Below, one piece after another: positions 7,007 to 64,000 of a DNA stretch of 64,000 nucleotides. The notes under the pieces were generated by a model. It was not told the DNA's origin. It searched no databases and worked only from the letters and a program-made list of their open reading frames with translations. The stretch's first letter is position 1. Every line of letters starts with the position of its first letter. Source of the stretch: an uncultured Lachnospiraceae bacterium (GTDB lineage Bacteria; Bacillota; Clostridia; Lachnospirales; Lachnospiraceae); contig CAMUAR010000002.1 in NCBI GenBank assembly GCA_947086895.1, forward strand, positions 45,253 through 109,252. The letters run 5' to 3'. The position numbers were made by a program, and so were the translations under genes.

Positions 7007-8242
7007 CTACGAAGTTGTGCGCACGAGAATCGCAAGCGTCAGCAAAAACAAAACTGCTCCTGTTGCAAGCGCCTGAAATAACATTGTAATCCCTTCTGCG
7101 GTATCGGACAGGCAACGCACAATCCGCTTGTCCGCCACCGGCTCGACAAGCGCGGCTCCTACCCGGTAACATAAGGAAGAAAGCAAAACTTTTATCAGCG
7201 GCGAAAGGCAGACAAACACAATAACAATGATACCTCCTGTGCCAACCGCATTCTTAATCACATTTCCCGCATTTAAAACAGTTTCTGCAACGCCGGAAAA
7301 CAGATTTCCAAGCCCTGGAATCATCTGCGATATTTTAATTGCCGATTTGCGCCGCGCCTGGTCAAGTACCGGCGTAATCATTCCTTGCAGAATGCTTGTC
7401 CCAGCGACAAGCCCCAAAATTGTTTTAATTCCAAACCGCACTCCTCTGGACAAAAGTTCGATCAATTTGCCAAGTGGCTCTTCCTGTGTTAAATGATTTG
7501 CAAGTACTGCCATCATATATAGATGAATGGCTGGAATCAACACCGAAACAACAAAATAGTCCGCCAGCGCCAAGCCCATCAGCAAAGTTGCTGAAGCCGC
7601 TTGTGAAGTAAGCGCGCCGGTCGAAAAGGCGAGCGTTGCACAAAATACCGGAACAAGCAGCTTCATAAATGTCATCAGCCGTTCCAACGTTGCTGATACT
7701 ATGCCGCTCGCAGAAAGATATCCCGCTGCCAACATGGAAAATAAAAGAAGATATGTAACATAATATCCGCCCTCCGCCACCTGACCATTTCCAAATGCCC
7801 TTGAAAAACTAGTAAAAACTGCGGTTAAAAGAACAATACCAAGCAGTTTTACCAACTCCTCTTTTTTCCCGGAAAGCTGCCCTGGCAATCCAAAAAATAA
7901 TTGTTGTAAAAGACCTGAAAACGACAGTTCCTCCTCCCCGCTTAACACGCGCAGAACATAATCCGTAAAACTAAACTTCTCTTCCGGCAAAAGTTCCTTT
8001 ACTGCTCTGTCAAGCTCTTCATACTCACTGCTCTCCAAAAACTCTGAAAAATACTTTTCTGTTGTTTTATCCTGCGCACCGTAAACTTTATATTCTTCCG
8101 AAAACAGGAATGCTCCAAAAACCGCCCAGAATAAACTTATTTTTATAATAGTCATCCGAACGCTCCCTTTTCGCCCACTTATGGCAAAAACGCTGGGAAT
8201 CCGTATCCACTTGCCAAGCGTCTGCCCGCTTTGCCCGCTCAT
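7007..8242 (-). CDS. spoIIIAE: Stage III sporulation protein AE
   Basis: Polytopic membrane protein at the expected operon position. The likely true start is ATG 8155 (AAAGGGAG RBS, signal-like MTIIKISLFWAVFGAFLFS). Confidence 0.85.
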   Translation of the reverse strand: MSGQSGQTLGKWIRIPSVFAISGRKGSVRMTIIKISLFWAVFGAFLFSEEYKVYGAQDKTTEKYFSEFLESSEYEELDRAVKELLPEEKFSFTDYVLRVLSGEEELSFSGLLQQLFFGLPGQLSGKKEELVKLLGIVLLTAVFTSFSRAFGNGQVAEGGYYVTYLLLFSMLAAGYLSASGIVSATLERLMTFMKLLVPVFCATLAFSTGALTSQAASATLLMGLALADYFVVSVLIPAIHLYMMAVLANHLTQEEPLGKLIELLSRGVRFGIKTILGLVAGTSILQGMITPVLDQARRKSAIKISQMIPGLGNLFSGVAETVLNAGNVIKNAVGTGGIIVIVFVCLSPLIKVLLSSLCYRVGAALVEPVADKRIVRCLSDTAEGITMLFQALATGAVLFLLTLAILVRTTS

Positions 8243-9486: not shown

Positions 9487-10428
9487 CTAGCAAATTCTCC
9501 CGCTGGCATCATACACTGCTTTGACAAAACATAATCCATTCTTTTTTGCAAGTACAACATACCGCTCAAACATCCCTCTGCCAATCATATCGCACAACAC
9601 CGGCTTTCTTTTCACCTCCTCTAAATCTGTGCCGTGAACCGTTGCAAGAAGCTTACAGCCGCAGTTCAGCGCATACCGCAGCGCATGTAAGTCTTCCTCT
9701 TTTCCAACCTCATCAACAGCAATCACCTGCGGCGTCATCGACCGCAGTAAAAATAAAAGCCCCTCCGCCTTCGGACAACAATCTAATATATCCGTTCGGA
9801 TTCCAACGTCATTTTGCGGTATTCCCTGATAACATGCCGCAATTTCCGCGCGCTCATCTACCACGCCGATTGTCTGTCCCCTGTTTGAGAGCTGTCTTAC
9901 AAGATCGCGCAGCATTGTTGTTTTTCCTGCTCCTGGCGGAGCAATAAAAAGCGTGTGACAGACTTGTCCATCCAATCCAAAAAGTTTTGGAAGCAATTGA
10001 TCTGCACAGCCTTTTACTTCGTGGGCAATTCTGATATTTAAAAAAGATATGTATTTCATACTCCGCACGCTGCCGCCGGACAGTACGGTTCGTCCGCACA
10101 CGCCGACCCGATGCCCTCCCGCAATTGTGATGTAACCCTGCTTTACTTCCTCCTCAAACGCATAGAGAGAATAATTGCTGATATATTCCATTGTTTCATG
10201 CAGTTCCTGTACTCCGACAATATAACCCAAAGCCTGATTTTTTGTAAACTGCCCGTCTTTTGTCAAAAAAGTTTCTCCTCTCGCCAAATTTAAAATCATC
10301 GGCTGACAAGCTCTCAGGCGGATTTCCATCAGATCAGAAAAATCAAACTTCGCCTTTGACAAGACCGTTTTTATTTTGCCTGCCACCACTCTTGTCACCG
10401 CTTCCATAGCTCCTTCTTTTCCTTCCAT
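9487..10428 (-). CDS. spoIIIAA: Stage III sporulation protein AA (secretion-type ATPase)
   Basis: Walker A motif APPGAGKTT. First gene of the eight-gene string. Confidence 0.9.
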   Translation of the reverse strand: MEGKEGAMEAVTRVVAGKIKTVLSKAKFDFSDLMEIRLRACQPMILNLARGETFLTKDGQFTKNQALGYIVGVQELHETMEYISNYSLYAFEEEVKQGYITIAGGHRVGVCGRTVLSGGSVRSMKYISFLNIRIAHEVKGCADQLLPKLFGLDGQVCHTLFIAPPGAGKTTMLRDLVRQLSNRGQTIGVVDERAEIAACYQGIPQNDVGIRTDILDCCPKAEGLLFLLRSMTPQVIAVDEVGKEEDLHALRYALNCGCKLLATVHGTDLEEVKRKPVLCDMIGRGMFERYVVLAKKNGLCFVKAVYDASGRIC

Positions 10429-10661: not shown

Positions 10662-11429
10662 ATGCAGTATGGACTAATCGGGGAAACCCTTGGACACAGT
10701 TACTCAAAACAAATTCACGCTCAGCTTGCAGATTATGTCTATGAGCTGCACCCGCTCTCCCGCGAAGAATTTCCACATTTTATGGAAGCGCGGGATTTTA
10801 CCGCAATCAATGTGACAATCCCCTACAAGCAGGCGGTGATTCCTTATCTTGATTCTATTGACCCGCTGGCAGAGCGCATCGGCGCGGTCAATACAATTGT
10901 AAACCGCCTTGGCAAACTGACCGGTTACAATACCGATTACTTTGGCTTTCTTGGTCTGCTTCGCCAATATCATATTGATGTTCGCAGCAAAAAAATTTTG
11001 GTTCTTGGAAATGGCGGCGCTGCGCAGCCAGTGTTTACCGCATTATCTGAACTTGGCGCCGGTGAAGTTATCACCGTAAAATATAAAGAAGAGCCTGGCG
11101 TTATCACTTATAAAACTGCTGCCATGCTCCATTCGAATGCAGATATTATTATAAATACAAGTCCGGTTGGCATGTATCCAAACACGGACGCTACTCCGAT
11201 TGATTTATCTTTATACCATAATCTATCCGCCGCAGTTGATATTATTGCCAACCCGCTCGAAACCCGCTTTCTGCGCGAGGCGGCAAATCTTGGCGCACGC
11301 ACTGCGGGAGGGCTTTATATGCTTGTCGCACAGGCAAAGTATGCGGTGGAATATTTTCTTGATCAGAAAATCTCCGACGAAAAAATTCTGCCAATCAGTG
11401 AACAGATTGCCGCATTGATGGAACAGTAA
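10662..11429 (+). CDS. aroE: Shikimate dehydrogenase
   Basis: Motifs NVTIPYK, GAVNT, GYNTD and GNGGAA are visible in the translation. Confidence 0.85.
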   Translation: MQYGLIGETLGHSYSKQIHAQLADYVYELHPLSREEFPHFMEARDFTAINVTIPYKQAVIPYLDSIDPLAERIGAVNTIVNRLGKLTGYNTDYFGFLGLLRQYHIDVRSKKILVLGNGGAAQPVFTALSELGAGEVITVKYKEEPGVITYKTAAMLHSNADIIINTSPVGMYPNTDATPIDLSLYHNLSAAVDIIANPLETRFLREAANLGARTAGGLYMLVAQAKYAVEYFLDQKISDEKILPISEQIAALMEQ

Positions 11430-11605: not shown

Positions 11606-13228
11606 TCAGTCGTCGATCTCTTTCTTTAAAATCTTTCCATTTGACGCGGCGATTTCATACTCATACTCCAAACGCCCCGCCTTAAATTCAATCTGGTAAA
11701 TCCATATTCCATCATCAAAGTCGCGCTCTACTTCAAGTTTTCTTATATCGCTCTCGGCAACGCCCGCGTCCTTTCTTGCAATCTCCAGCGCCTCGTCCTG
11801 CGTAATTTCCCCTGACTGCTCCGGCTCCTGCCAATGATCCAGCAATTTGATATCTTTCTCCAAAACCGCACCGTCCGCCGCGGCAATCTTATAATCATAC
11901 TCTTTTCCCGCCGCATCAAACTCGATATCATACTCCCAGCGACCATCGTCTTTTTCAAGCTTTACAGATAAGTTTGTAATATCTTTCTCAGAAACGCCCG
12001 CGTCTTTTCTTGCCGCTGCCACCGCCGCGTCCTGCGTAATCTTACCGGTTTCTGGTGTTATTATAGTCTGCCAGCTGTCCAGCAAATCGATATCTTTTTC
12101 CAAAATAGTTCCGTTTTCTGCCAGTATTTTATACTCGTACTCTTTTTCACCTGCGTCAAACTCAATATTATACTCCCAGCGACCATCGTCTTTTTCGAGT
12201 TTTACAGATAAATTTGTAATATCTTTCTCGGCAGCACCCGCATCGTTTCTCGCAATTTTTAACGCTTCTTCCTTTGAGATCCCGTTTGTTATTTCTGGAA
12301 GTTCCTGCTTATTGTTTAACATATCGGTATCTTTTTCTATAATTGTGCCGTCGGATGCCAAAATCTTATACTCATACTCTATCTTATCTGTATCAAACTC
12401 AACCTCATACTCCCAACGGCCGTTTTCGAAATCCATCCGCACTTTCAGGTTTATAATCTTATCGTTTGCAACATCAGCATCCTTTTTCGCAATTTCGATC
12501 GCCTGCTCTTTTGTAATTTCCTTGGCTGTCTGAGAACCTGGCGTCGGCGTCGCTTCTATATAATCGTTGTGATCAATCTCTCTTTTTAAAATCGCTCCAT
12601 CGGACACTGCAATCTTATATTCATATTCTTTATCTTCGGTGTCAAATTCCACATCATAAACTTCTATACCATTCTCATAATCCAAATGAACCTTTAAATG
12701 AAGCATACTGTCTGTGGAAACTTTTGCGTCCTTCCTTGCAATTTCCACGGCTTTATCCTTGGTAATCTCATTGTTTGCCTGCGGTTTCTTTGTCGGAACA
12801 TTCTCGTCCTCAGGAGCTTTGGTAATTTCTGGAACCTCTGTCGCCTTCGGCTGTTCTACTGCCTTAATCCCCTTTTCTAAAATCTCTCCGTCCTCTTTTG
12901 CAATCTTATACTCGTAAGCTTTGTTTCCTGCAATAAATACAACCTCATATTCACCGCCGTCCTTGTCTCTTTCCAAACGCACTCTCAAATTTTGTACATC
13001 ATCTTCGGAAACTTTCGCATCGTTCCATGCAATCTCAGTCGCCTGATCCATAGAAATCGAAGCGGCTTTTGGAACCGGAGTATTGGAAGGTGCCAAATCT
13101 CCTACCGCAGCTGCACTGCCAGAGGGATTTGTGTCCATTTCCCGCATATCTTCATCGCGCGATCCACACCCTGCGGACACAGCCATAATCGTGAATGCTA
13201 AAGCAGATAAAAAAATCTTTTTTCTCAT
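11606..13228 (-). CDS. Lipoprotein with six tandem PepSY-like modules
   Basis: Start taken at ATG 13228 (GGGAGG RBS). Lipobox SAGC. Six modules of about 80 aa, each of the form I(T/S)x(D/E)xAxxIAxxDAxV...L.V.L...G.WEY.(I/V)EFD...EYEYKI....G.I(L/I)EK. Confidence 0.8.
   Translation of the reverse strand: MRKKIFLSALAFTIMAVSAGCGSRDEDMREMDTNPSGSAAAVGDLAPSNTPVPKAASISMDQATEIAWNDAKVSEDDVQNLRVRLERDKDGGEYEVVFIAGNKAYEYKIAKEDGEILEKGIKAVEQPKATEVPEITKAPEDENVPTKKPQANNEITKDKAVEIARKDAKVSTDSMLHLKVHLDYENGIEVYDVEFDTEDKEYEYKIAVSDGAILKREIDHNDYIEATPTPGSQTAKEITKEQAIEIAKKDADVANDKIINLKVRMDFENGRWEYEVEFDTDKIEYEYKILASDGTIIEKDTDMLNNKQELPEITNGISKEEALKIARNDAGAAEKDITNLSVKLEKDDGRWEYNIEFDAGEKEYEYKILAENGTILEKDIDLLDSWQTIITPETGKITQDAAVAAARKDAGVSEKDITNLSVKLEKDDGRWEYDIEFDAAGKEYDYKIAAADGAVLEKDIKLLDHWQEPEQSGEITQDEALEIARKDAGVAESDIRKLEVERDFDDGIWIYQIEFKAGRLEYEYEIAASNGKILKKEIDD
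11690..13010 (-). repeat. Intragenic tandem repeat, period about 237-240 bp (PepSY modules). Units around 11850..12330 are nearly identical
   Basis: TACTCCCAGCGACCATCGTCTTTTTC recurs at 11931 and 12171, exactly 240 bp apart. A diverged copy lies near 12408. Outer boundaries are approximate. Confidence 0.7.
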
Positions 13229-13435: not shown

Positions 13436-14281
13436 TTACACAGTATTTTTATACAGATCATCCTCCGGCGGCAGAACTTTATATGCACAAGCCAAACACT
13501 TTCGGTATTCCATCGGCGTCATGCCAATGACATCTACAAATACACGATTAAAACTTCTTTGGCTGTTAAACCCCGCCTCCGCCCACAAATCTGTAAGAGA
13601 AGAAGTCGTTGTTTTCATCAGTTGTATCACATATTCCAACCGAATACGATTTAAATACTGCCGGAAATTTATTTTTAACCGGTTCGAAAAAATATGCGAA
13701 ATATAATACTTGCTAATATGCAGCTTGCGCGCAAGAATCTCCAGTGTTAAAGGTTCCTGAAAATGCGCCATAATATACTGCAGCAGCCTGCAAACCAATT
13801 CCTCCCCTTCCGACTGGTTTCGCTTTTCTAACATAAGCAGCGGAAAGATTGCCGCAAACAGCACTTGAACCCATGCAGAACAAACCGCAAAATCATTTGG
13901 TTCCAAACGATTACAAGCAAGCTTACACAACCGCTTGATCGCGAGCATCGCGTCTTCTGGAAGATTTTTTGATAAGATAAAAGGGCATGATGGCACATAA
14001 GTTCTTATAGAGTTTAGATAACTTCCCGCGAGGGAATAATCCAAAAGAAACAAGCGCGTCAAATTTTCTTCCATCGATTGGTAACTATGTACCTGCTGCG
14101 GAAAAATCACCACGCAGTCCCCCTCTGTAAGTTCCCATGGTCTTCCCATAATCCTCACAGTCAGTTTTCCTTTGCATACAAATGTAATTTCGATATGGCT
14201 GTGTAAGTGTTCTGGAAATTCCAGATTCTTTGATTCAAAAACATCAAAAATATTGTTTTGGCTTTCATAAAATGGATTCAT
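13436..14281 (-). CDS. AraC family transcriptional regulator (cupin N-domain plus HTH)
   Basis: C-terminal AraC HTH (...LARKLHISKYYISHIFS...GFNSQRSFNRVF...). Divergent from the ThuA/oxidoreductase genes. Confidence 0.85.
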   Translation of the reverse strand: MNPFYESQNNIFDVFESKNLEFPEHLHSHIEITFVCKGKLTVRIMGRPWELTEGDCVVIFPQQVHSYQSMEENLTRLFLLDYSLAGSYLNSIRTYVPSCPFILSKNLPEDAMLAIKRLCKLACNRLEPNDFAVCSAWVQVLFAAIFPLLMLEKRNQSEGEELVCRLLQYIMAHFQEPLTLEILARKLHISKYYISHIFSNRLKINFRQYLNRIRLEYVIQLMKTTTSSLTDLWAEAGFNSQRSFNRVFVDVIGMTPMEYRKCLACAYKVLPPEDDLYKNTV

Positions 14282-38205: not shown

Positions 38206-40809
38206 TCAAACTCGTTCTACATAAGCTCTGATACTGGAAGCGTTTGCATACAACTGCGTATGTCCTTCGGATATCACGGCAAGCGTCGGCGCCTGCTGAA
38301 TATCAAGCCCTCTTGCAAGTTCTGGATTTTCCTGCGCGTCAACAACAATATAATCCATCCCTTCCAGATAACTTTTCGCCTGCCGACAGTTCGGGCAAGT
38401 CTTTGTTGTAAACAGATAAGTCCCATCTGGAAGCCCGCAATCATTCTTTAAATCCAGTTTGAATAAATCCGCTCTCTTGTTTTGATCCAGCAGACGGGAT
38501 AATTCCGACATCTCTTTTGGTTCCAACAAACTGGACAAATCCGGCATCTCAGATATCCCTTTTGATTCCAGCAGACGGGATAATTCCGACATCTCTTTTG
38601 GTTCCAGCAAACTGGACAAATCCGGCATCTCGGATATCCCTTTTGATTCCAGCAGACGGGATAGTTTCAACATCTCTTTTGATTCTGACTGTTCTGTCAT
38701 CTTTTGTTCTTTTATAGTTTCCCATGACATTTTGCGGGATTCCTCAAGATTATAAGTTTTTCGGTTTTTATATTCCTGCGTTTTTCCAGCGTTCCAGTTT
38801 TGCACCGGGCGGTAATATCCGGTAATTCTGCTGTAAACTTCCGTTTTTTCCCCGCATTCAGGGCATTGATATACTTCCCCGCTCAAATAGCCATGATTCC
38901 TGCATACCGAGTATGTCGGAGACATAGTATAATACGGAAGCTTGTAGTTTGAAGCGATCGTGCGAACCAGCTTTGCTGCTGCCTGCCAGTCCACAAGCTT
39001 CTCGCCAAGAAATGCATGAAACACCGTTCCAGACGTGTACAAAGTCTGAAGTTCATCCTGAACATCCAACGCCTCAAAAATATCCGCTGTAAAATCCACC
39101 GGAAGGTGAGAACTGTTTGTATAATACGGCGTATCGCCCTTGTTTCCCGCCGTTTTAATATCCGGCCACCGGTCTCTGTCATGCTTTGCAAGGCGGTAGC
39201 TTGTGGATTCTGCCGGGGTCGCTTCAAGGTTGTACAGATCGCCATACTGCTCCTGATAATCGCTTAGGCGTTCTCTCATATGGTTTAATACCTTAACCGA
39301 AAACCGCTGTGTCGCTGGCTCTTCCATTCCTTTTCCAAGCCACTTCGCATTCAATCCAACCTCATTCATCCCGACAATCCCGATTGTTGAAAAATGATTG
39401 TCAAACGTTCCAAGATAGCGTTTTGTATATGGGTATAATCCCTCTTTTAAAAGTTTTGTAATCACCGTGCGCTTTACTTTTAAGGAGCGCGCTGCAACAT
39501 CCATTGTATGGTCAAGCCGGTTGAAAAAATCGCTCTCGTTCGCCGCAAGGTATGCAATACGCGGCATATTGATTGTAACAACGCCTACAGAACCCGTACT
39601 TTCGCCGCTTCCAAAAAAACCGCCTGTCTTTTTGCGCAGTTCCCGCAGGTCAAGGCGCAGCCTGCAGCACATAGAGCGCACGTCGCTCGGCTTCATATCA
39701 CTGTTGATATAATTGGAAAAGTAAGGAGTTCCATACTTGGCGGTCATCTCGAAAAGAAGCCTGTTATTTTCTGTGTCAGACCAGTCAAAATCTCTTGTGA
39801 TGGAATAAGTTGGAATCGGATATTGAAAGCCGCGACCATTCGCATCGCCTTCAATCATAATTTCAATAAACGCTTTGTTTACCATATCCATCTCAGCTTT
39901 GCAATCTTTATATTGAAAATCGACCTCTCTGCCCCCGACAATACAATTCAGCTCTGCCAAATCATCAGGAACTGTCCAGTCAAGAGTAATATTGGAAAAC
40001 GGAGCCTGTGTTCCCCAGCGGCTCGGCGTATTTACACCGTAGACAAAACATTGGATGCATTGCTTTACTTCGTCATAATTCAGCTTGTCCACTTTGACAA
40101 AAGGCGCTAAGTAAGTGTCAAACGATGAAAAAGCCTGTGCGCCTGCCCACTCGTTCTGCATAATGCCAAGAAAATTTACCATCTGATTGCAGAGCGTGGA
40201 AAGATGTTTTGCCGGGGCGGATGTAATCTTTCCCGGAATGCCGCCAAGCCCTTCTTTGATCAGTTGTTTTAACGACCAGCCCGCACAGTATCCTGTCAGC
40301 ATCGACAAATCATGAATATGAATATCTGCATTTCGGTGCGCATTCGCAACCTCTTCATCATAAATTTCAGAAAGCCAGTAATTTGCTGTAACAGACCCTG
40401 AATTGTGCAGAATTAAGCCCCCAACGGAATAAGTGACGGTCGAATTCTCCTTGACCCGCCAGTCCTCCTCGCGCACGTAACTGTCAACAATCTCCTTGTA
40501 ATCGAGTATCGTAGATTTCATATTGCGGATTTTCTCACGGTTTTTGCGGCACAAAATATAAGCTTTGGCAACATCCGTATATCCCGATTGTTCCAACGTA
40601 TGTTCCACACTGTCCTGAACATCCTCCACGCTGACCGACTTGTCTTTTATCTTCCCCTGAAAATCTGCGGTTACCCGCAGCGCCAAAAGATCGATCATCT
40701 CCTCATCATAAAACTTTTTTGCTGCCTGAAATGCCTTTTTGATGGCGGCGCTGATTTTTGAAAGATGAAATTCTGCAATCTCGCCATCCCGCTTAATTAC
40801 CTGGATCAT
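38206..40809 (-). CDS. nrdD: Anaerobic ribonucleoside-triphosphate reductase (class III) fused through a repeat linker to a C-terminal thioredoxin/glutaredoxin-fold CxxC domain
   Basis: ATP-cone start MIQVIKRDGEIAEF... at ATG 40809 (GAAGGGAAGGGA RBS). Zn-ribbon CPECG. Glycyl-radical end SRITGYYRPVQNWNAGK. Then about 2.6 copies of a 27-aa repeat and the domain ...YLFTTKTCPNCRQAKSYL... Confidence 0.9.
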   Translation of the reverse strand: MIQVIKRDGEIAEFHLSKISAAIKKAFQAAKKFYDEEMIDLLALRVTADFQGKIKDKSVSVEDVQDSVEHTLEQSGYTDVAKAYILCRKNREKIRNMKSTILDYKEIVDSYVREEDWRVKENSTVTYSVGGLILHNSGSVTANYWLSEIYDEEVANAHRNADIHIHDLSMLTGYCAGWSLKQLIKEGLGGIPGKITSAPAKHLSTLCNQMVNFLGIMQNEWAGAQAFSSFDTYLAPFVKVDKLNYDEVKQCIQCFVYGVNTPSRWGTQAPFSNITLDWTVPDDLAELNCIVGGREVDFQYKDCKAEMDMVNKAFIEIMIEGDANGRGFQYPIPTYSITRDFDWSDTENNRLLFEMTAKYGTPYFSNYINSDMKPSDVRSMCCRLRLDLRELRKKTGGFFGSGESTGSVGVVTINMPRIAYLAANESDFFNRLDHTMDVAARSLKVKRTVITKLLKEGLYPYTKRYLGTFDNHFSTIGIVGMNEVGLNAKWLGKGMEEPATQRFSVKVLNHMRERLSDYQEQYGDLYNLEATPAESTSYRLAKHDRDRWPDIKTAGNKGDTPYYTNSSHLPVDFTADIFEALDVQDELQTLYTSGTVFHAFLGEKLVDWQAAAKLVRTIASNYKLPYYTMSPTYSVCRNHGYLSGEVYQCPECGEKTEVYSRITGYYRPVQNWNAGKTQEYKNRKTYNLEESRKMSWETIKEQKMTEQSESKEMLKLSRLLESKGISEMPDLSSLLEPKEMSELSRLLESKGISEMPDLSSLLEPKEMSELSRLLDQNKRADLFKLDLKNDCGLPDGTYLFTTKTCPNCRQAKSYLEGMDYIVVDAQENPELARGLDIQQAPTLAVISEGHTQLYANASSIRAYVERV
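38480..38686 (-). repeat. 81-bp (27-aa) tandem repeat, about 2.6 copies, inside the nrdD 3' region
   Basis: CAGACGGGAT recurs at 38491, 38572 and 38653, a period of 81 bp. Units are nearly identical and encode LSRLLESKGISEMPDLSSLLEPKEMSE. Confidence 0.9.
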
Positions 40810-40938
40810 AGCATCCCTTCCCTTCTTTTCCTTACACGGCGCTATAGCGCGGTATTCTGCGCCTACAGCACTCCCCCTATCTTTTGCACTAACACCATTT
40901 TTATGGCAGGGTAGTGCGGTCGATATCCGTGCAACAAG

Positions 40939-40967
40939 ATTGTAGCAGATAATGCAAGTCCAGTCAA
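40939..40967 (-). promoter_or_regulatory. nrdD promoter (TTGACT - 17 nt - TACAAT)
   Basis: On the minus strand, TTGACT is at 40967..40962 and TACAAT at 40944..40939. The leader is about 130 nt. Confidence 0.55.
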
Positions 40968-40975
40968 GAAAAACT

Positions 40976-41020
40976 ACAACATATATTTGTTGTTTCAGAA
41001 TCGTATACAATATATTGTGT
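40976..41020 (-). promoter_or_regulatory. Two NrdR-box-like palindromes upstream of the nrdD promoter
   Basis: ACAACATATATTTGTTGT (40976..40993) and ATACAATATATTGTGT (41005..41020) resemble the NrdR box consensus acaCwAtATaTwGtgt. Confidence 0.55.
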
Positions 41021-41152
41021 TTTTTAGTCGGATTTTCATACATTCAAAATGAGTACACAACAAAATAAAAACGTAAATATTTTATAAATATATCACTTGT
41101 ATAATAATCCTTTCCAATCCGTGTATTACAACAATTTTATCTAATCAAAAAT

Positions 41153-58503: not shown

Positions 58504-58608
58504 AGGCGATATGAAGAATCCTATTCGCTTTTCTATATCCTCTTCTTTTATTTCTTAACAATACTTTTTCTTTTCATTCTTTTAGTAGCATTTTAATAAA
58601 ATTACGTT

Positions 58609-60189
58609 CTACAATATTTTTATATGTTTTACCTTTGTCAAAAATTCAATTTCAATTTCTCTGCTGAATTCCGTAAGAACTTCTGTCATTCCCTGATTTA
58701 TTGCATCCATAACTGCTCTCTGCGCATGAACATTCATCCCAGGATCTGCATAATTTTCTTCTGGATCTGGAGAATAGCCATCCAACCCCGCAAGAGAAAT
58801 CTTTTTCACACCTATATTAATTAAAAATTTAATCAGCATCATCCCTGCATTGTCACACACCGCTTCATTTGCATTCAGCAGCTCTTTGTACTTGGTCTGA
58901 AGATAAACATCCAAAGCTGGAATATTGGACGTCACAATACATTTTTCACGTTTTTTTGCATCCAACTCCCGATACCTGCGCAGATTACTTAAAAAAATAA
59001 AATCTGTTATATTTTCATCGTACTCATAATTTACACTAAAAGTAATAATATTTTTCTGTAAAGAATACTGTACAATCTTTTCTCTTTCCGCGGCAGAACT
59101 TTTCCCTGGAGCAATCAACAGCACTTCTCTGTCCAACAGCTTGTCCTTCAGCTCTGCAAGTCTTTCCTCCTGCACGCGGTCTTTTTCCATATATTTTAAA
59201 TATAGTTCTTCAATATACTCTTTATCATAAGCCGCTTTTTTTCCTTCGTCCATCATATCAAAAATTTCATTCATTCCCTCGATCGTCAAAGTTTTACGAT
59301 TGTCCAAATATCCCGCATAATTTGGGTGAGCATTATGCGCTGCAGAAATATAATTTGGAAGAGAATATCCCCATGAATTCCCTTGATAAAAATCATTTAA
59401 TACCTCGTCGATAATATTTAAAAGCGGCGGAAGCTGATATTTTGTCTCAATATTTTCATTTAGATATCCCACAAATAATTCTGTATTTAAATTTCCTGCA
59501 CCGCGCCCCATCCCATACACAGATGAATCCATAATAAGACTTCTGTTTGTCGGAAGAGCTACCAACGCCTGCGCATTTGCATACGCCAGCTGCATATTGT
59601 TATGAGAATGAAACCCAATTAAAATTCCAGGATTTAAATTATGCTCTACCATATAAAAAAAACGTGTCAAATCCTTTTCTTTCATCACTCCAAAACTGTC
59701 CACAATATAAAAAGCATAAGGATTTAACTGATTTGTTCTTTTAATTAAATCAAGGAACTCCTCATCTGTATAACTTAAAGAAACCATTGGCTGCAAAAAT
59801 ACTTTGTATCCCTTTTTTTGAATCTGCCCGCATACCTTAAACGCTTCCAAAAGGTCTTTTTTGTGAAATGCCACGCGAATTCCATCCAATGGACTTTCTT
59901 TGCATTCTGGAAGTTTTAAAATATCATACTCCCCATAATTGATCATTGCCACAAAAAGACTATTATTTTGTTTTTTTGGAATTACTTCTACAATTTGTTC
60001 CACTTTTGTAAATCGCGTAGAATCCGGGATGTACGGTACTTGATCTGTGAGAAATCCGCACTCAATAACATCCATCCTGGCTTCCACTAAACCTGCTATA
60101 ATTTTTTTAATATTTTCACACCCAAATTTCCAGTAGTTACAATAACCGCCATCACGCAGAGTACAATCCAGGACATGGATTCGATTCAT
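58609..60189 (-). CDS. HMGL-like (DRE-TIM) aldolase-domain protein with a C-terminal extension of about 190 aa (possibly DUF115/MptE-like)
   Basis: N-terminus MNRIHVLDCTLRDGGY is the pyruvate-carboxyltransferase/HMGL-like signature. The C-terminal part (...LLIAPGKSS...DNAGMMLIKFLINIGVKKISLAGLDGYS) is only tentatively assigned. Confidence 0.65.
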   Translation of the reverse strand: MNRIHVLDCTLRDGGYCNYWKFGCENIKKIIAGLVEARMDVIECGFLTDQVPYIPDSTRFTKVEQIVEVIPKKQNNSLFVAMINYGEYDILKLPECKESPLDGIRVAFHKKDLLEAFKVCGQIQKKGYKVFLQPMVSLSYTDEEFLDLIKRTNQLNPYAFYIVDSFGVMKEKDLTRFFYMVEHNLNPGILIGFHSHNNMQLAYANAQALVALPTNRSLIMDSSVYGMGRGAGNLNTELFVGYLNENIETKYQLPPLLNIIDEVLNDFYQGNSWGYSLPNYISAAHNAHPNYAGYLDNRKTLTIEGMNEIFDMMDEGKKAAYDKEYIEELYLKYMEKDRVQEERLAELKDKLLDREVLLIAPGKSSAAEREKIVQYSLQKNIITFSVNYEYDENITDFIFLSNLRRYRELDAKKREKCIVTSNIPALDVYLQTKYKELLNANEAVCDNAGMMLIKFLINIGVKKISLAGLDGYSPDPEENYADPGMNVHAQRAVMDAINQGMTEVLTEFSREIEIEFLTKVKHIKIL

Positions 60190-60227
60190 TTTATGTTCTC
60201 CTTTATTCTTAAAAATCTATAAAATAC

Positions 60228-60881
60228 TTATTTATTTTTATAATAGTTATATATAGCATCTGCTAAAATAAAATCTTCTTCCTCGTCAATATCTATCCCT
60301 TCAATCCCTCCAACTTCCACAAGAAATGGCTTATCTCCTATCCGCCTTCCAAGCTCTGTCACAACACTTTGTCTATAAATATAAAATCCGCTGGTCTCTT
60401 CATAAATTACTGGTAAATCTTGTGTACGCGGAATATTATTAATATCATAATTTATTGGTTCTTCATTTGCCCACAAAAAATCTTGTATTTTCTTCGCCGA
60501 AAAAGAAGAATCATATTCACCATCACAAACTGCTTTAATTCCTTTACGAATCGAATTTGTAGAAATAAATGGTGCTGTCGCATGTGCCAATACATAAACG
60601 TCTGCAAAAATTTCTTGCGCAAATTGGCGTAATACTTCACTAATGGAAGTTTCATCTCTATCTAACCATGGATCACGCTTTAAATATTTTATCTTCTTTG
60701 GAAGAAATGATTGAATTTCATGCGAACTGCAATAAACATAAATTTCATCAATTTCTTCTATTTTAGAAAGAGTTGATAAAATATAATCACATAACGGTTT
60801 TCCACCAGTAAAAGATTTTATATTTTTACCTGGTAAACGACGATTGGTTAATTTCATTGGTACAAACGCAACAATCTTCAT
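60228..60881 (-). CDS. Acylneuraminate-type cytidylyltransferase family protein (CMP-sugar synthetase-like)
   Basis: Start at ATG 60881 (GGGAGGA RBS). MKIVAFVPMKLTNRRLPGKNIK matches the CTP_transf_3 N-terminal motif. Confidence 0.75.
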   Translation of the reverse strand: MKIVAFVPMKLTNRRLPGKNIKSFTGGKPLCDYILSTLSKIEEIDEIYVYCSSHEIQSFLPKKIKYLKRDPWLDRDETSISEVLRQFAQEIFADVYVLAHATAPFISTNSIRKGIKAVCDGEYDSSFSAKKIQDFLWANEEPINYDINNIPRTQDLPVIYEETSGFYIYRQSVVTELGRRIGDKPFLVEVGGIEGIDIDEEEDFILADAIYNYYKNK

Positions 60882-60933
60882 AAATCCTCCCATTCTGCTT
60901 CCCAAGACAATTTTATATCTCAAAACATATAAA

Positions 60934-61352
60934 TTATTTTTCTAAATTTTCGGATGCTATTTTAACAAAATCATCATAACTTCGAATATACTCCTCTGGA
61001 TCATAACATTCGCTTGCCAAAACCAAAAGTACAGAATCAGAGCTAAAATCATACATTTCTTTCCATACCATAGCTGGCAAATATAAACCCATATACGGAC
61101 GATCTAAACAAAAAACTTTCTCCCCCCCCCGCACATTTTTACTCTTACTTTACTTGTACCTATTACATTAATTAATAAAAATTGTGTTTTTCGATTAGCA
61201 TGCTGTCCGCGCACTACATCTGAATTTGAGCCATATATGTAAAATATCCTTTTCGTTTCAAAAGGTATGTCCTTTTCATTTTCCACTACTACAAGATGAC
61301 CATATTCATCACCATATTGTTCGAACTTATTAATCATTGCGGAACTTTTCAT
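60934..61352 (-). pseudogene. FdtA/QdtA/WxcM-type sugar 3,4-ketoisomerase, frameshifted at a G9 tract (candidate phase-OFF allele)
   Basis: ORFs 61104..61352 and 60934..61134 overlap at the C9 run 61122..61130. The joined product has the cupin pattern ...RGQHANRKT...VRVKMCGG(G)EKVFCLDRPYMGLYLPAMVWKEMYDFSSDSVLLVLAS..YD..EYI. Confidence 0.7.
61122..61130 (-). repeat. Homopolymer G9 on the coding strand, C9 on the plus strand
   Basis: Counted directly: t61121, then C at 61122..61130, then g61131. Confidence 0.95.
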
Positions 61353-61353
61353 A

Positions 61354-62478
61354 TTAGTTCTCCCACTTATTTATTTTTTCAATTACATAATCTGTCTGCT
61401 CTGTTGTCAATAACGGACTCATTGGCAAACTTAATTCTGTTGCATGTATTTCTTCACTAATTAAATAGCTTTTTTTATTCCACTCTCGATATGCCATCTG
61501 TTTATGCGGCGGTATTGGATAGTGAATCAATGTCTGTATCCCTTGCGTTTGCAAATATTTCTGTAAACAGTTTCGCGTCTTACATCGCACGGGAAAAATA
61601 TGAAAAACATGATTCCCATTCTGAGGTATCTCTGGCACAATAATTTGTGGATGTTTTATTCCATCGATATAGCGCAGCGCGATAGAAACACGTTTTTCAT
61701 TATCCTCGTCCAAATAAGCCAGTTTTACATTAAGCACTGCTGCTTGAATCTCATCCAATCTGCTGTTGCATCCTTTATATTCAAATACATACTTTTTTCC
61801 AGAGCCATAATTAGCAAGCTTTCTTATAACCTCTGCCAAATCATCATGATCTGTTGTAACTGCACCTCCATCCCCCAATGCTCCAAGATTCTTTCCGGGA
61901 TAAAAACTATGCCCTGCTACATCTCCAATACTTCCTGTTCTTCTATTTCCAAACCTGCATCCATGAGCCTGTGCATTATCTTCAATCAATTTTAAGTGAT
62001 ATTTTTCGCATAATTCTTTTATCTTTTCTGTATAAGCGCATTTTCCATACAAGTGAACAATCATAATAGCACGAGTGCGCTCTGTTATTGTTGCTTCTAT
62101 TTTAGAATCATCAATCTCCATTGTGTTTTGATTCGGTTCTACCAGAACAGGAACAAATCCATTTTCAGAAATTGCCAAAATTGATGCAATATAAGTATTG
62201 GCTGGAACAATAACCTCATCGCCTTCTTTCATAACTCCCAATTCTTTATATGCTCTGAGAATCAAGGTTAATGCATCCAGACCGTTCGCCACTCCGATAC
62301 AATGTTTTGTCCCAATATAATTTGCATAATTTTCTTCAAAACGTTTTACTGTCTCGCCAAGAAGATACCATCCACTATCAATTACTTCTAAAACAGCATT
62401 CTGAATTTCATCACGATACTTTTCTGTTATACTCTTTAAATCTAGAAAAGGAACTCGAATAAAAGGTTCTCTTGTCAT
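61354..62478 (-). CDS. DegT/DnrJ/EryC1/StrS family sugar aminotransferase (FdtB/QdtB-like)
   Basis: PLP-lysine motif [15 protein letters not shown], and NAQAHG. Lies immediately upstream of, and tightly coupled to, the FdtA-like gene. Confidence 0.85.
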
Positions 62479-62620
62479 TTTTTCTTTCTCCTTTCGTTTT
62501 TCTTAACAAATCAAGCAATTGTAAAACCATAAAATCTGCCCAAATATAAAATTATTCGTTTCTTTCATTTAAATCTTATAATTCTTTTCACCTAAATTCT
62601 GCTTTTTTATTTCATGCACA

Positions 62621-63613
62621 TCAAAAAGGTTCTAAAAATGATAAGATTATTTTGGCAATAACTTTCATATCATCTTCTGTATATCTTTGATCAATTGGCA
62701 GCGGCAGCAAGTATTTAGATAGTTTTTGTTCTGTTTTATTACACTCTTTTATATCCAAACATTTTTTCCACCACTGTGGTATATAAATTTTATTTGTTAT
62801 CAAATAACTTCTTAGTTCCGAATTTGACACTAAAAACGGATAGACCATTGGAACCATATCTTTTTTATAATAAAAAGAAAATTCATTTTTATCGCCAAGC
62901 AAAAAATGCAGCATTTCAAAATTCTTTCTTCTTTTCTGTACCACCTCTTTATAACCTATCGCCGATAAAATCGACTGTGTCAATTTTGACATTCCTGCTG
63001 GGACAGATTTTGAAATAATTTCTTCGCTTTCCAAATAATCTGGATAAGCTTCATTTGTTCCTTTATCTAAAGATTTTAACAAATAAAGAGAATGTAAGTA
63101 AGAACATTCTGGTTCAAGTAATATGGTAGCAGCATTTTTCCCTATCAAATAAGCGCCATCAGAAACTCCAAAAAACTTTCTGCAAGAATAAACATTATAA
63201 GCATCTGTAATCGGCTCTGTAAAAAAACTCTGTGTATTATCAATTATCAAATTTTTATATTCTGAACAATATCTTAAAAACTCTTCTTGTGGAATTAAAC
63301 CAAAATAATTTGTCATTAAAAAACATGCTTTTTCATCTGCAAGTTCTGAACTCATAAAATTACTTATAATTGGTCGTAATTTTGAGTCGATATGATAAGA
63401 AAATATTTGTATTCCTTCATCTTCACAGGCTTTATATACGGATGGACACATATAATAAGGTAAAAAGATTTCCCTGCACTGCATTTCTCTAATTGCAAGT
63501 TTAATTGCATTTCTCGCACTATTTAATTCACATCGGTTTACAATCTTATCAAAATACCCCCCCCCGTTACATTTTTTTATTTCAAGTGGAAAATATCCTC
63601 CATACTCATTCAT
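62621..63613 (-). CDS. Hypothetical glycan-biosynthesis protein, possibly DegT-like PLP-fold, with a 5'-proximal G9 tract
   Basis: Start at ATG 63613 (GGGAGGAAAA RBS). The segment YSCRKFFGVSDGAYL resembles the S..K...(D/G)GG PLP region of DegT-type enzymes. This assignment is weak. Confidence 0.55.
   Translation of the reverse strand: MNEYGGYFPLEIKKCNGGGYFDKIVNRCELNSARNAIKLAIREMQCREIFLPYYMCPSVYKACEDEGIQIFSYHIDSKLRPIISNFMSSELADEKACFLMTNYFGLIPQEEFLRYCSEYKNLIIDNTQSFFTEPITDAYNVYSCRKFFGVSDGAYLIGKNAATILLEPECSYLHSLYLLKSLDKGTNEAYPDYLESEEIISKSVPAGMSKLTQSILSAIGYKEVVQKRRKNFEMLHFLLGDKNEFSFYYKKDMVPMVYPFLVSNSELRSYLITNKIYIPQWWKKCLDIKECNKTEQKLSKYLLPLPIDQRYTEDDMKVIAKIILSFLEPF
63557..63565 (-). repeat. Homopolymer G9 on the coding strand, in frame, encoding GGG at codons 17-19
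   Basis: Counted directly: C at 63557..63565. Coding strand reads ...AAA AAA TGT AAC GGG GGG GGG TAT... Confidence 0.95.
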
Positions 63614-63687
63614 TTTTCCTCCCATTCCGCCGCATAGGACACAAACAATTAATACATATCATTACGCTCTAATCTCTTAAAATTTCT

Positions 63688-64000
63688 TTATGCTTTTACC
63701 TTTTTCTTCTTCAGTCTTGGAATTAAAAATTTTTTTGCTTCCTGGAAAAGTTTTGTTCGATGTAAAAGAAGAATCCATAAAATATTTGGTATTATCACAC
63801 ATAAAACTAATTTAACTGCCAAGTTTCTCCACCCGGAACTTCCTGTTGTTATGGGAATATTTGCAAAAAGAGGAGCAGAACTTATCACAGTAACCACCAT
63901 TACTCCAAAAAACAACATAAGTTGTGTTATATACTCTCTAAGACCTTTTCTAAAATACTCTTTAAATACTATCCACGTCGCCCATGGAGTTAAAATAAAT
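63688..64000 (-). CDS. Polytopic membrane protein, probably the C-terminus of a Wzx-type oligosaccharide flippase; N-terminus lies beyond the window
   Basis: Hydrophobic C-terminal segment ending in a basic tail (...IPRLKKKKVKA). The frame stays open to the window edge. Sits in a glycan-cluster context. Confidence 0.5.
   Translation of the reverse strand, partial: FILTPWATWIVFKEYFRKGLREYITQLMLFFGVMVVTVISSAPLFANIPITTGSSGWRNLAVKLVLCVIIPNILWILLLHRTKLFQEAKKFLIPRLKKKKVKA

Follow-up and report, generated by a model that had tools for sequence, protein, structure and literature searches.

Introduction

Slipped-strand phase variation is a textbook mechanism in Campylobacter, Neisseria and Haemophilus, and phase variation through simple-sequence repeats has mostly been documented in host-adapted pathogens. 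In the glycan loci of Campylobacter jejuni, tracts of about 8–11 G, with G9 and G10 as the modal lengths, turn genes ON and OFF by frameshifting and so generate combinatorial variants of the surface glycan. Here we analyse a 64,000-nt stretch of DNA from an uncultured Lachnospiraceae bacterium (GenBank assembly GCA_947086895.1, contig CAMUAR010000002.1, positions 45,253 to 109,252 of the forward strand; hereafter the window), in which a run of nine G, tract 1, splits a gene of the FdtA/QdtA sugar-ketoisomerase family. We propose that this tract is a hypermutable simple-sequence repeat subject to slipped-strand phase variation and that the window carries an out-of-frame (OFF) allele of it.

How does this locus compare with the described systems? 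Like the capsule, lipooligosaccharide (LOS) and flagellin-glycosylation poly-G loci of C. jejuni, it combines intragenic G runs, an AT-rich genome and several tracts in one glycan locus, and the C. jejuni loci presumably also share with it an FdtA-family pair, WlaRA and WlaRB, and MptE-like/Maf proteins. Unlike C. jejuni, an epsilonproteobacterial pathogen, the host here is an uncultured Gram-positive-type anaerobe of the Lachnospiraceae, and unlike in the C. jejuni loci the genes proposed to switch are a ketoisomerase-family cupin and a DegT-like enzyme that matches no Pfam family. Poly-G tracts in the lgt glycan genes of Neisseria likewise change length and alter the surface glycan (PMC2192423); those genes encode glycosyltransferases of Gram-negative LOS, whereas the window's tracts lie in genes for predicted nucleotide-sugar tailoring enzymes of a Wzx/Wzy-type polymer.

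In gut anaerobes such as Clostridioides difficile and Bacteroides, invertible promoters give the same class of outcome, the stochastic ON/OFF switching of surface and glycan genes (PMC11868660). They do so by means of a recombinase and inverted repeats, whereas the window's tracts would act through replication slippage in a coding homopolymer. For C. difficile, a 2025 review gives invertible promoters as the mechanism, and only those (PMC11868660), and in the papers covered by our full-text search, repeat-mediated phase variation of glycan genes was described neither for Lachnospiraceae nor for any other Clostridia, in agreement with an earlier sequence-based note on this locus (the original prediction), which had held that homopolymeric tracts are not an established mechanism in Clostridia. 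What is new here is the host and the target genes; the mechanism itself is classic.

Results

A G9 tract divides an FdtA-family gene

The argument concerns two tracts and the genes that contain them:

61122..61130, minus strand: tract 1, a G9 homopolymer at codons 75-77 of the FdtA-family gene; OFF in the window
60934..61352, minus strand: FdtA/QdtA-family cupin gene, putative dTDP-4-keto-6-deoxyhexose 3,4-ketoisomerase; split in the window, 139 aa once in frame
63557..63565, minus strand: tract 2, a G9 homopolymer covering codons 17-19 of the DegT-like gene; the window allele is in frame (ON)
62621..63613, minus strand: DegT-like aminotransferase-fold gene, 330 aa (334 aa if translation starts at the ATG at 63625); tract 2 lies close to the 5' end

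Positions 61122..61130 are all C on the forward strand, so that the coding (minus) strand has a G9 run there, across which two open reading frames (ORFs) in different frames overlap. The first, 61104..61352(-), encodes 82 aa and ends C-terminally in KMCGGGRKFFV before a stop, and the second, 60934..61134(-), encodes 66 aa with the N-terminus MRGGEKVFCLDRPY (its first residues are also given as MRGGEKVFCLDRPYMGLY). Across the tract the coding strand reads AAA ATG TGC GGG GGG GGG AGA AAG TTT TTT GTT TAG. The sequence thus confirms what the original prediction had read by hand, namely the position of the run, the overlap of the ORFs at it and, in the G9 frame, the TAG shortly after it.

When the length of tract 1 was varied in silico, G7, G10 and G13 gave full-length products of 138, 139 and 140 aa, whereas G6, G9 and G12 gave products truncated to 81 to 83 aa and G8, G11 and G14 products truncated to 100 to 102 aa. 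The earlier statement that G7 or G10 restores the frame agrees with this table, to which G13 can be added. The joined G10 product matches the Pfam FdtA family (PF05523) over positions 5-129 of 131 (E=5.2e-42), and the alignment that the prediction had suggested as a check proved to be end-to-end with the solved structures of both QdtA (4o9e, E=7e-33) and FdtA (2pa7, E=5e-29); the structures of WlaRA/WlaRB (PDB 5tpv and 5tpu) were also among its structure matches. Thus, the two ORFs are halves of one protein, and of the original description, a single cupin protein of about 135 aa, the first part stands, while the length computed here is 139 aa (G10).

In a structure model, the glycines encoded by tract 1 (Gly75-77) sit in the loop of a beta-hairpin (residues 73-77), between strands 67-72 and 78-83, and in the alignment QdtA is one residue shorter than the joined cupin at this loop. 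Because of this loop position and the shorter QdtA loop, extra glycines are plausibly tolerable, and GGG and GGGG would both fit.

Could such runs have arisen by chance? The glycan region of the window (58600..64000, 5.4 kb) is AT-rich, with a per-kb GC content of 31-36%, and contains two G/C runs of at least 9 nt where 0.003-0.005 are expected, as computed analytically under independent, identically distributed (iid) and first-order Markov models with the region's own composition. Run lengths in this region jump from 5 to 9, G/C runs of 6 to 8 being absent, and no G/C run longer than 6 occurs in the window outside it. A shuffle of the whole 64-kb window, which gave a mean of 0.24 runs and two or more in 7 of 100 shuffles, is far less decisive because the remaining window is richer in C. 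The claim that a G9 run is improbable by chance in this AT-rich locus is therefore well founded at the regional scale (~0.004 expected against 2 seen) and weaker against the whole-window shuffle.

Both tracts vary in length among near-identical assemblies

We surveyed 34 contigs from 32 distinct samples, taken from ENA SPAdes or Logan assemblies of Illumina data, among which we distinguish lineage A (contigs at least 99.5% identical to the contig L001) and lineage B (six sister contigs, ~97-98%). A query with the hypothetical G10 product retrieved an existing protein of 139 aa (P0001) that is 100% identical to it. This in-frame product is found on 23 contigs and the OFF halves on 19, and the 90% cluster of P0001 holds the two window halves together with 140-, 141- and 142-aa forms and several more truncated forms. 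In the lineage A samples, tract 1 measures G9 (11 samples), G10 (11), G11 (1), G12 (2) or G13 (1), so that 12 samples are ON and 14 OFF; ON and OFF alleles are roughly equally common, at frequencies that are approximate. Apart from the tract, no allele of the FdtA-family gene in lineage A has a further stop, indel or substitution.

The comparison with related genomes that the original prediction had called for thus uncovered lengths from G9 to G13, and the proposed phase-OFF allele gains support from length polymorphism among near-identical assemblies. The prediction had also named an outcome that would speak against it, a fixed G9 with further decay of the gene; what we found instead was the ON product P0001 on 23 contigs, G11, G12 and G13 alleles besides, and no other lesion.

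Tract 2, which was absent from the original prediction, lies 2.4 kb upstream of tract 1, where the coding strand reads AAA TGT AAC GGG GGG GGG TAT TTT. Its ON lengths are G6, G9 and G12 in silico. Across both lineages it measures G8 in seven cases, G9 in twelve, G10 in two and G11 in one, with an interrupted G7AG in one further case. All four ON/OFF combinations of the two tracts are present (counts of 10, 6, 4 and 3), and tract 2 varies independently of tract 1. Two bases before tract 2, at 63567, the window has an A on the coding strand (AAC, Asn) where all 20+ other assemblies have a T (ATC, Ile). Among these are two whose sequence otherwise matches that of the window over 6.7-12.6 kb. The A could be genuine variation or a faulty consensus call beside the G run.

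How specific is the variation to the tracts? In 23 pairwise BLAST comparisons to L001, covering 151,672 aligned nt at an identity of at least 99.5%, the only indels were those at the two G tracts and one 7-bp deletion in contig L005, which truncates feoA. None of the 20 A/T runs of at least 7 nt varied across the same 151,672 nt. Several contigs show zero mismatches to L001 over 2-10 kb and yet have different tract lengths, and two well-covered contigs, L011 (20x) and L021 (17x), have 0 mismatches over 10.2 kb except at tract 1, which is G9 in the former and G13 in the latter.

Grouping the contigs by single-nucleotide polymorphism (SNP) profile gave three main haplotypes: (i) in haplotype 1 (9 samples, at most 1 SNP over up to 10.2 kb), tract 1 occurs at 9, 10 and 12 G and tract 2 at 8 and 9; (ii) haplotype 2 (10 samples) has 9, 10, 11 or 13 G in tract 1 and 8, 9 or 11 in tract 2; and (iii) haplotype 3, formed by the window and two assemblies (L111 and L114), has 9 in tract 1 throughout and 8, 8 and 9 in tract 2. 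Over 12,647 bp, the window and L111 (18.9x) show 2 differences, and both of these lie at tract 2; that assemblies of one haplotype differ there is an indirect hint of mixed tract lengths in a single population. All three main haplotypes thus include OFF alleles of tract 1, and two of them also include ON alleles. Since the same lengths occur within different haplotypes, they arose repeatedly on different backgrounds.

Further searches covered other data. JGI metagenomes scanned with the flanks of tract 1 gave no match, and a literature search for the accession numbers of the samples returned nothing. A scan of species-representative genomes, from which 80 loci were kept, returned relatives of at most 69% identity; the window's own species is not among these 80 loci, and a split match possibly scores low in such a scan.

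Tracts in related loci

In lineage B, a 7-nt insertion directly follows tract 1 (AGAGAAGAGAAAG), and here G9 is the in-frame length, with a 141-aa product (P0123); a G8-type OFF half (P0129) is also present. A more distant orthologue, P0002, is 76% identical to the joined protein and has G9 at the same codon and alignment column (KICGGGWD). Its locus (contig L115) occupies the same position next to feoAB but holds a different glycan cassette. The position of the tract is kept across 24% protein divergence while its flanks change. More distant FdtA-family homologues have DG(E/K)GNE at the tract-1 site.

The L115 locus, 20 kb long, carries four G9 tracts (10229..10237, 10958..10966, 12759..12767 and 13582..13590), which lie in the FdtA orthologue, a GNAT acetyltransferase gene (G8 in another contig) and two CTP_transf_3 cytidylyltransferase genes. 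A change of +/-1 truncates the product of each in silico, and three of the four tracts are followed by TATTT, as is tract 2 of the window.

Coding-strand G runs were also seen in glycan loci of other Lachnospiraceae/Clostridia (L034, L098, L099 and L102). In two species, an orthologous pair of tracts (G10 at L098 6386..6395 and G9 at L099 6432..6440) lies at the 5' end of an acyltransferase-like gene beside FdtA, and L034 (2521..2529 and 11653..11661) and L102 (7341..7349 and 8180..8188) each contain two further coding-strand G9/G10 tracts. In the 80 FdtA-containing loci of other species, G runs numbered 6 against 6.2 expected; among loci below 45% GC only, the figures were 6 against 2.1, and because this excess is weak we do not claim that poly-G tracts are general.

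In two contigs (L119 654..662 and L118 6223..6231, products P0126 and P0127), the 5' half of FdtA continues up to G9 and is then joined to unrelated sequence. In L119 the sequence after G9, GGGGGGGGGtatttcc, resembles the 3' end of the cytidylyltransferase tract context and is followed by short-chain dehydrogenase/reductase (SDR) genes. The change of sequence right at the tract could reflect chimeric assembly, or else recombination or deletion between G tracts. One side possibility is that recombination or deletion between glycan genes also uses the tracts as junctions.

Predicted products of the two genes

What kind of enzyme does the tract-1 gene encode? Like FdtA of Aneurinibacillus thermoaerophilus and QdtA of Thermoanaerobacterium thermosaccharolyticum, its joined product is a full-length PF05523 protein with the first conserved His and an adjacent DegT gene; unlike them, it has Asn in place of the second His and Lys at the His95/Arg position. 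Specifically, H51 corresponds in the alignment to the leading His of the HxH motif, His49 in FdtA, which is the catalytic base of that enzyme (PMC2943079). The second conserved His (FdtA His51) is replaced by Asn53 within the motif RGQHANRK. Lys98 (VWKEM) stands where the inverting FdtA has His95 and the retaining QdtA an Arg, a residue linked to C-4' stereochemistry (PMC2943079).

Asn53 and Lys98 are invariant in 21 members of a large subfamily, with the signature RGQHAN...VWK, and this pattern suggests that the activity of the QHAN/WK subfamily may differ from that of the textbook isomerases. Being neither His nor Arg, Lys98 points to neither inversion nor retention in the product. The FdtA-type assignment of the original prediction therefore stands at the level of the family (PF05523) and fails at the level of the residues that distinguish FdtA. 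We infer that the tract-1 gene encodes a 3,4-ketoisomerase of a dTDP-sugar.

A second FdtA paralogue lies beyond the window edge (L110 4936..5346). It is intact, encodes 136 aa at 39% identity and lacks a tract; its HAH motif is canonical, and it shares the Arg of QdtA. In C. jejuni, the paralogues WlaRA and WlaRB are described as feeding two different 3-amino-3,6-dideoxyhexose branches; by analogy, the two FdtA paralogues of the present locus may plausibly do the same.

The 330-aa product of the tract-2 gene had no Pfam (including PF01041), NCBIfam or PDB sequence match. It has 5,532 homologues, which form an unnamed divergent family with a few members annotated as DegT or as dTDP-4-amino-4,6-dideoxygalactose transaminase. 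An AlphaFold model of the protein (predicted local distance difference test, pLDDT, 90.4) gave best Foldseek matches to 7n63, ArnB, WlaRG, QdtB and PseC, with E about 1e-12 and template-modelling (TM) scores of 0.57-0.67. The model thus resembles the type-I pyridoxal phosphate (PLP) fold of DegT-type nucleotide-sugar aminotransferases.

The glycan locus and the rest of the window

Around the two genes, the window holds the following features of the same locus:

61354..62478, minus strand: DegT/DnrJ/EryC1-family sugar aminotransferase, 374 aa (PF01041, E=3e-104)
60228..60881, minus strand: cytidylyltransferase (CTP_transf_3, weakly PseF-like), 217 aa, directly downstream of the FdtA-family gene
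58609..60189, minus strand: HMGL-like aldolase-domain protein, 526 aa, the final glycan gene before feoA-feoA-feoB
63688..64000, minus strand: 3' end of a Wzx-type flippase (Polysacc_synt), cut by the window edge

The gene for the 374-aa DegT protein ends 1 nt before the start of the FdtA-family gene, and its NCBIfam matches all fall under the equivalog cut-offs; it is likely the partner enzyme of the FdtA-family product, as FdtB and QdtB are. Beyond the window, the gene order is that of the contigs L001 and L110, both collinear with the window. Starting from a HAD-like gene, it runs through GT2, Wzy_C, a 495-aa gene with no Pfam match, the FdtA paralogue, a FemAB-like and an MptE-like gene to Wzx. 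After Wzx come the tract-2 DegT-like gene, the 374-aa DegT gene, the tract-1 FdtA gene, the cytidylyltransferase and the HMGL-like gene, and then feoA-feoA-feoB. From what is known of these families, the locus has the make-up expected of one that produces a Wzx/Wzy-dependent surface heteropolysaccharide. The lineage's 21-kb locus contains neither an FdtC/QdtC-type N-acetyltransferase nor RmlA/RmlB, all of which are present in the sister locus L115. In a single lineage B contig at 3.7x (L025), an A7 to A6 change near 7050 (L001 coordinate 7112) splits the HMGL-like gene into 330 + 193 aa.

Elsewhere, the window contains no rRNA or tRNA gene. The NrdD it encodes (38206..41043, minus strand) has 945 aa, against ~790-800 aa in most homologues; the family profile spans only residues 79-766, relatives of 984 aa exist, and an extra C-terminal region is apparent. 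Its nearest named relatives are from Lachnospiraceae metagenome-assembled genomes (MAGs), at 76-80% identity, and from Anaerocolumna, Lachnoclostridium phytofermentans and Mobilisporobacter, at about 85% over the core. The homologues of the FdtA-family protein likewise indicate a member of the Lachnospiraceae.

Discussion

We consider tract 1 a hypermutable simple-sequence repeat that undergoes slipped-strand phase variation, with the OFF allele in the window, and give this a probability of roughly 0.85. Strand slippage during replication would add or remove G's at the tract. At 7, 10 or 13 G the full 139-aa FdtA/QdtA-family enzyme would be made (ON), and at other lengths translation would stop after 81 to 102 aa, with loss of the C-terminal half of the cupin barrel (OFF). 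Tract 2 would switch the DegT-like gene in the same manner and independently, with G9, its length in the window, as an ON state. The pair of tracts could give up to four versions of a Wzx/Wzy-type polysaccharide per clone, which would differ by one or two amino-deoxy-sugar building blocks. The glycan is probably exposed at the surface, and switching at tract 1 would be fast and reversible within a lineage; it may carry a selective benefit, presumably escape from phage, antibody or other surface-directed selection.

Is the switching adaptive at all? The tract could instead be mutable without being adaptive, a slow strain-level polymorphism with no rapid, reversible or selected switching. The differences are indeed known as between-sample consensus differences, and G runs are only weakly enriched in FdtA loci of other low-GC Clostridia (6 against 2.1 expected). 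Set against this, G9 tracts are found two to four at a time in a single glycan island while the window's other 58 kb has 0, all tracts are on the coding strand within ORFs, lengths recur within haplotypes of at most 1 SNP, the tract position is conserved across 24% protein divergence with changing flanks, and an interrupted, "locked" variant (G7AG) exists. Because of the clustering in the island, the coding-strand location within ORFs and the recurrent homoplasy, we regard slow non-adaptive polymorphism as unlikely, although no other alternative to phase variation fares as well.

A homopolymer error of sequencing or assembly would mean that the true tract is G10, the gene intact and the frameshift an artefact. 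Homopolymer runs are error-prone, coverage is no more than 3-7x in many of the related contigs, and the window-only A at 63567 beside tract 2 hints at local consensus trouble. However, L111 (18.9x) and L114 (a Logan assembly), which share the window's haplotype, also have G9 at tract 1, and contigs at 17-29x show G9, G10 and G13. Moreover, the gap of four bases between G9 and G13 in an otherwise identical 10 kb is not a +/-1 error, and the A/T runs stayed constant throughout the 151,672 aligned nt. An assembly error is thus very improbable.

Recoding offers a different way for the OFF allele to be only apparent, G9 being expressed at full length by transcriptional slippage or programmed ribosomal frameshifting. 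Long homopolymers can provoke RNA polymerase slippage, which is documented best on A/T runs, and some leaky full-length product from G9 is possible. A programmed site, however, would be expected to hold one length, whereas the length of tract 1 varies, and no stimulatory structure or shifty heptamer turned up, though no search for either was made. About half of the alleles are in frame without any recoding, and for this reason it is most unlikely as the main explanation.

Least probable of all is a plain pseudogene, a decaying gene with one inactivating frameshift and an incidental G run, which would fit the out-of-frame window allele and a tract-1 copy that the second FdtA paralogue could make dispensable, but which we discount because ON alleles are as abundant as OFF ones (OFF in three of three main haplotypes, ON in two), the gene has no other lesion within lineage A, and the tract occupies the same codon in the 76%-identical intact orthologue.

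Several points nevertheless weigh against phase variation of the tract-1 gene as we describe it: (i) the data are consensus alleles of different samples, so that the differences are between samples, and contigs that match over 10 kb could belong to strains with differences in other parts of the genome; (ii) the allele frequencies are approximate because sampling was partly steered by the use of the ON or OFF protein as query, and some samples are possibly related, several being from consecutive accession numbers; (iii) the Asn at the second catalytic His makes the function of the predicted enzyme uncertain; (iv) the intact FdtA paralogue in the locus could render the OFF state phenotypically silent; and (v) two-colour Illumina chemistry was used for at least some samples (L014), although the poly-G artefact of this chemistry hits read ends and not internal runs. 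The end of contig L014 (8664..8715) consists of G20 and G27 runs, a typical two-colour dark-cycle artefact.

Does the finding reach beyond this species? The 2025 review poses as an open question whether multi-locus phase variation is restricted to pathogens or whether this impression reflects database bias (PMC11868660). Given the two tracts here, the four in L115, the acyltransferase tracts of L098/L099 and the pairs in L034 and L102, we suggest, tentatively and with the odds a little short of even, that multi-tract poly-G "phasomes" occur in the surface-glycan islands of commensal Lachnospiraceae, perhaps also in those of other low-GC Clostridia, and that slippage, alongside DNA inversion, is a general route to coat variation in gut Firmicutes.

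Public metagenome assemblies alone have yielded the population signature of a switch at two genes, and at four in a sister strain, of a surface-polysaccharide island. Coat variation in abundant gut Firmicutes may thus use a mechanism that is missed by tools designed to find inversions, and "frameshifted" glycan genes in MAGs should not be dismissed as pseudogenes or assembly errors. The tracts themselves are a concrete, PCR-sized target for studying how phage or IgA may select on commensal glycans.

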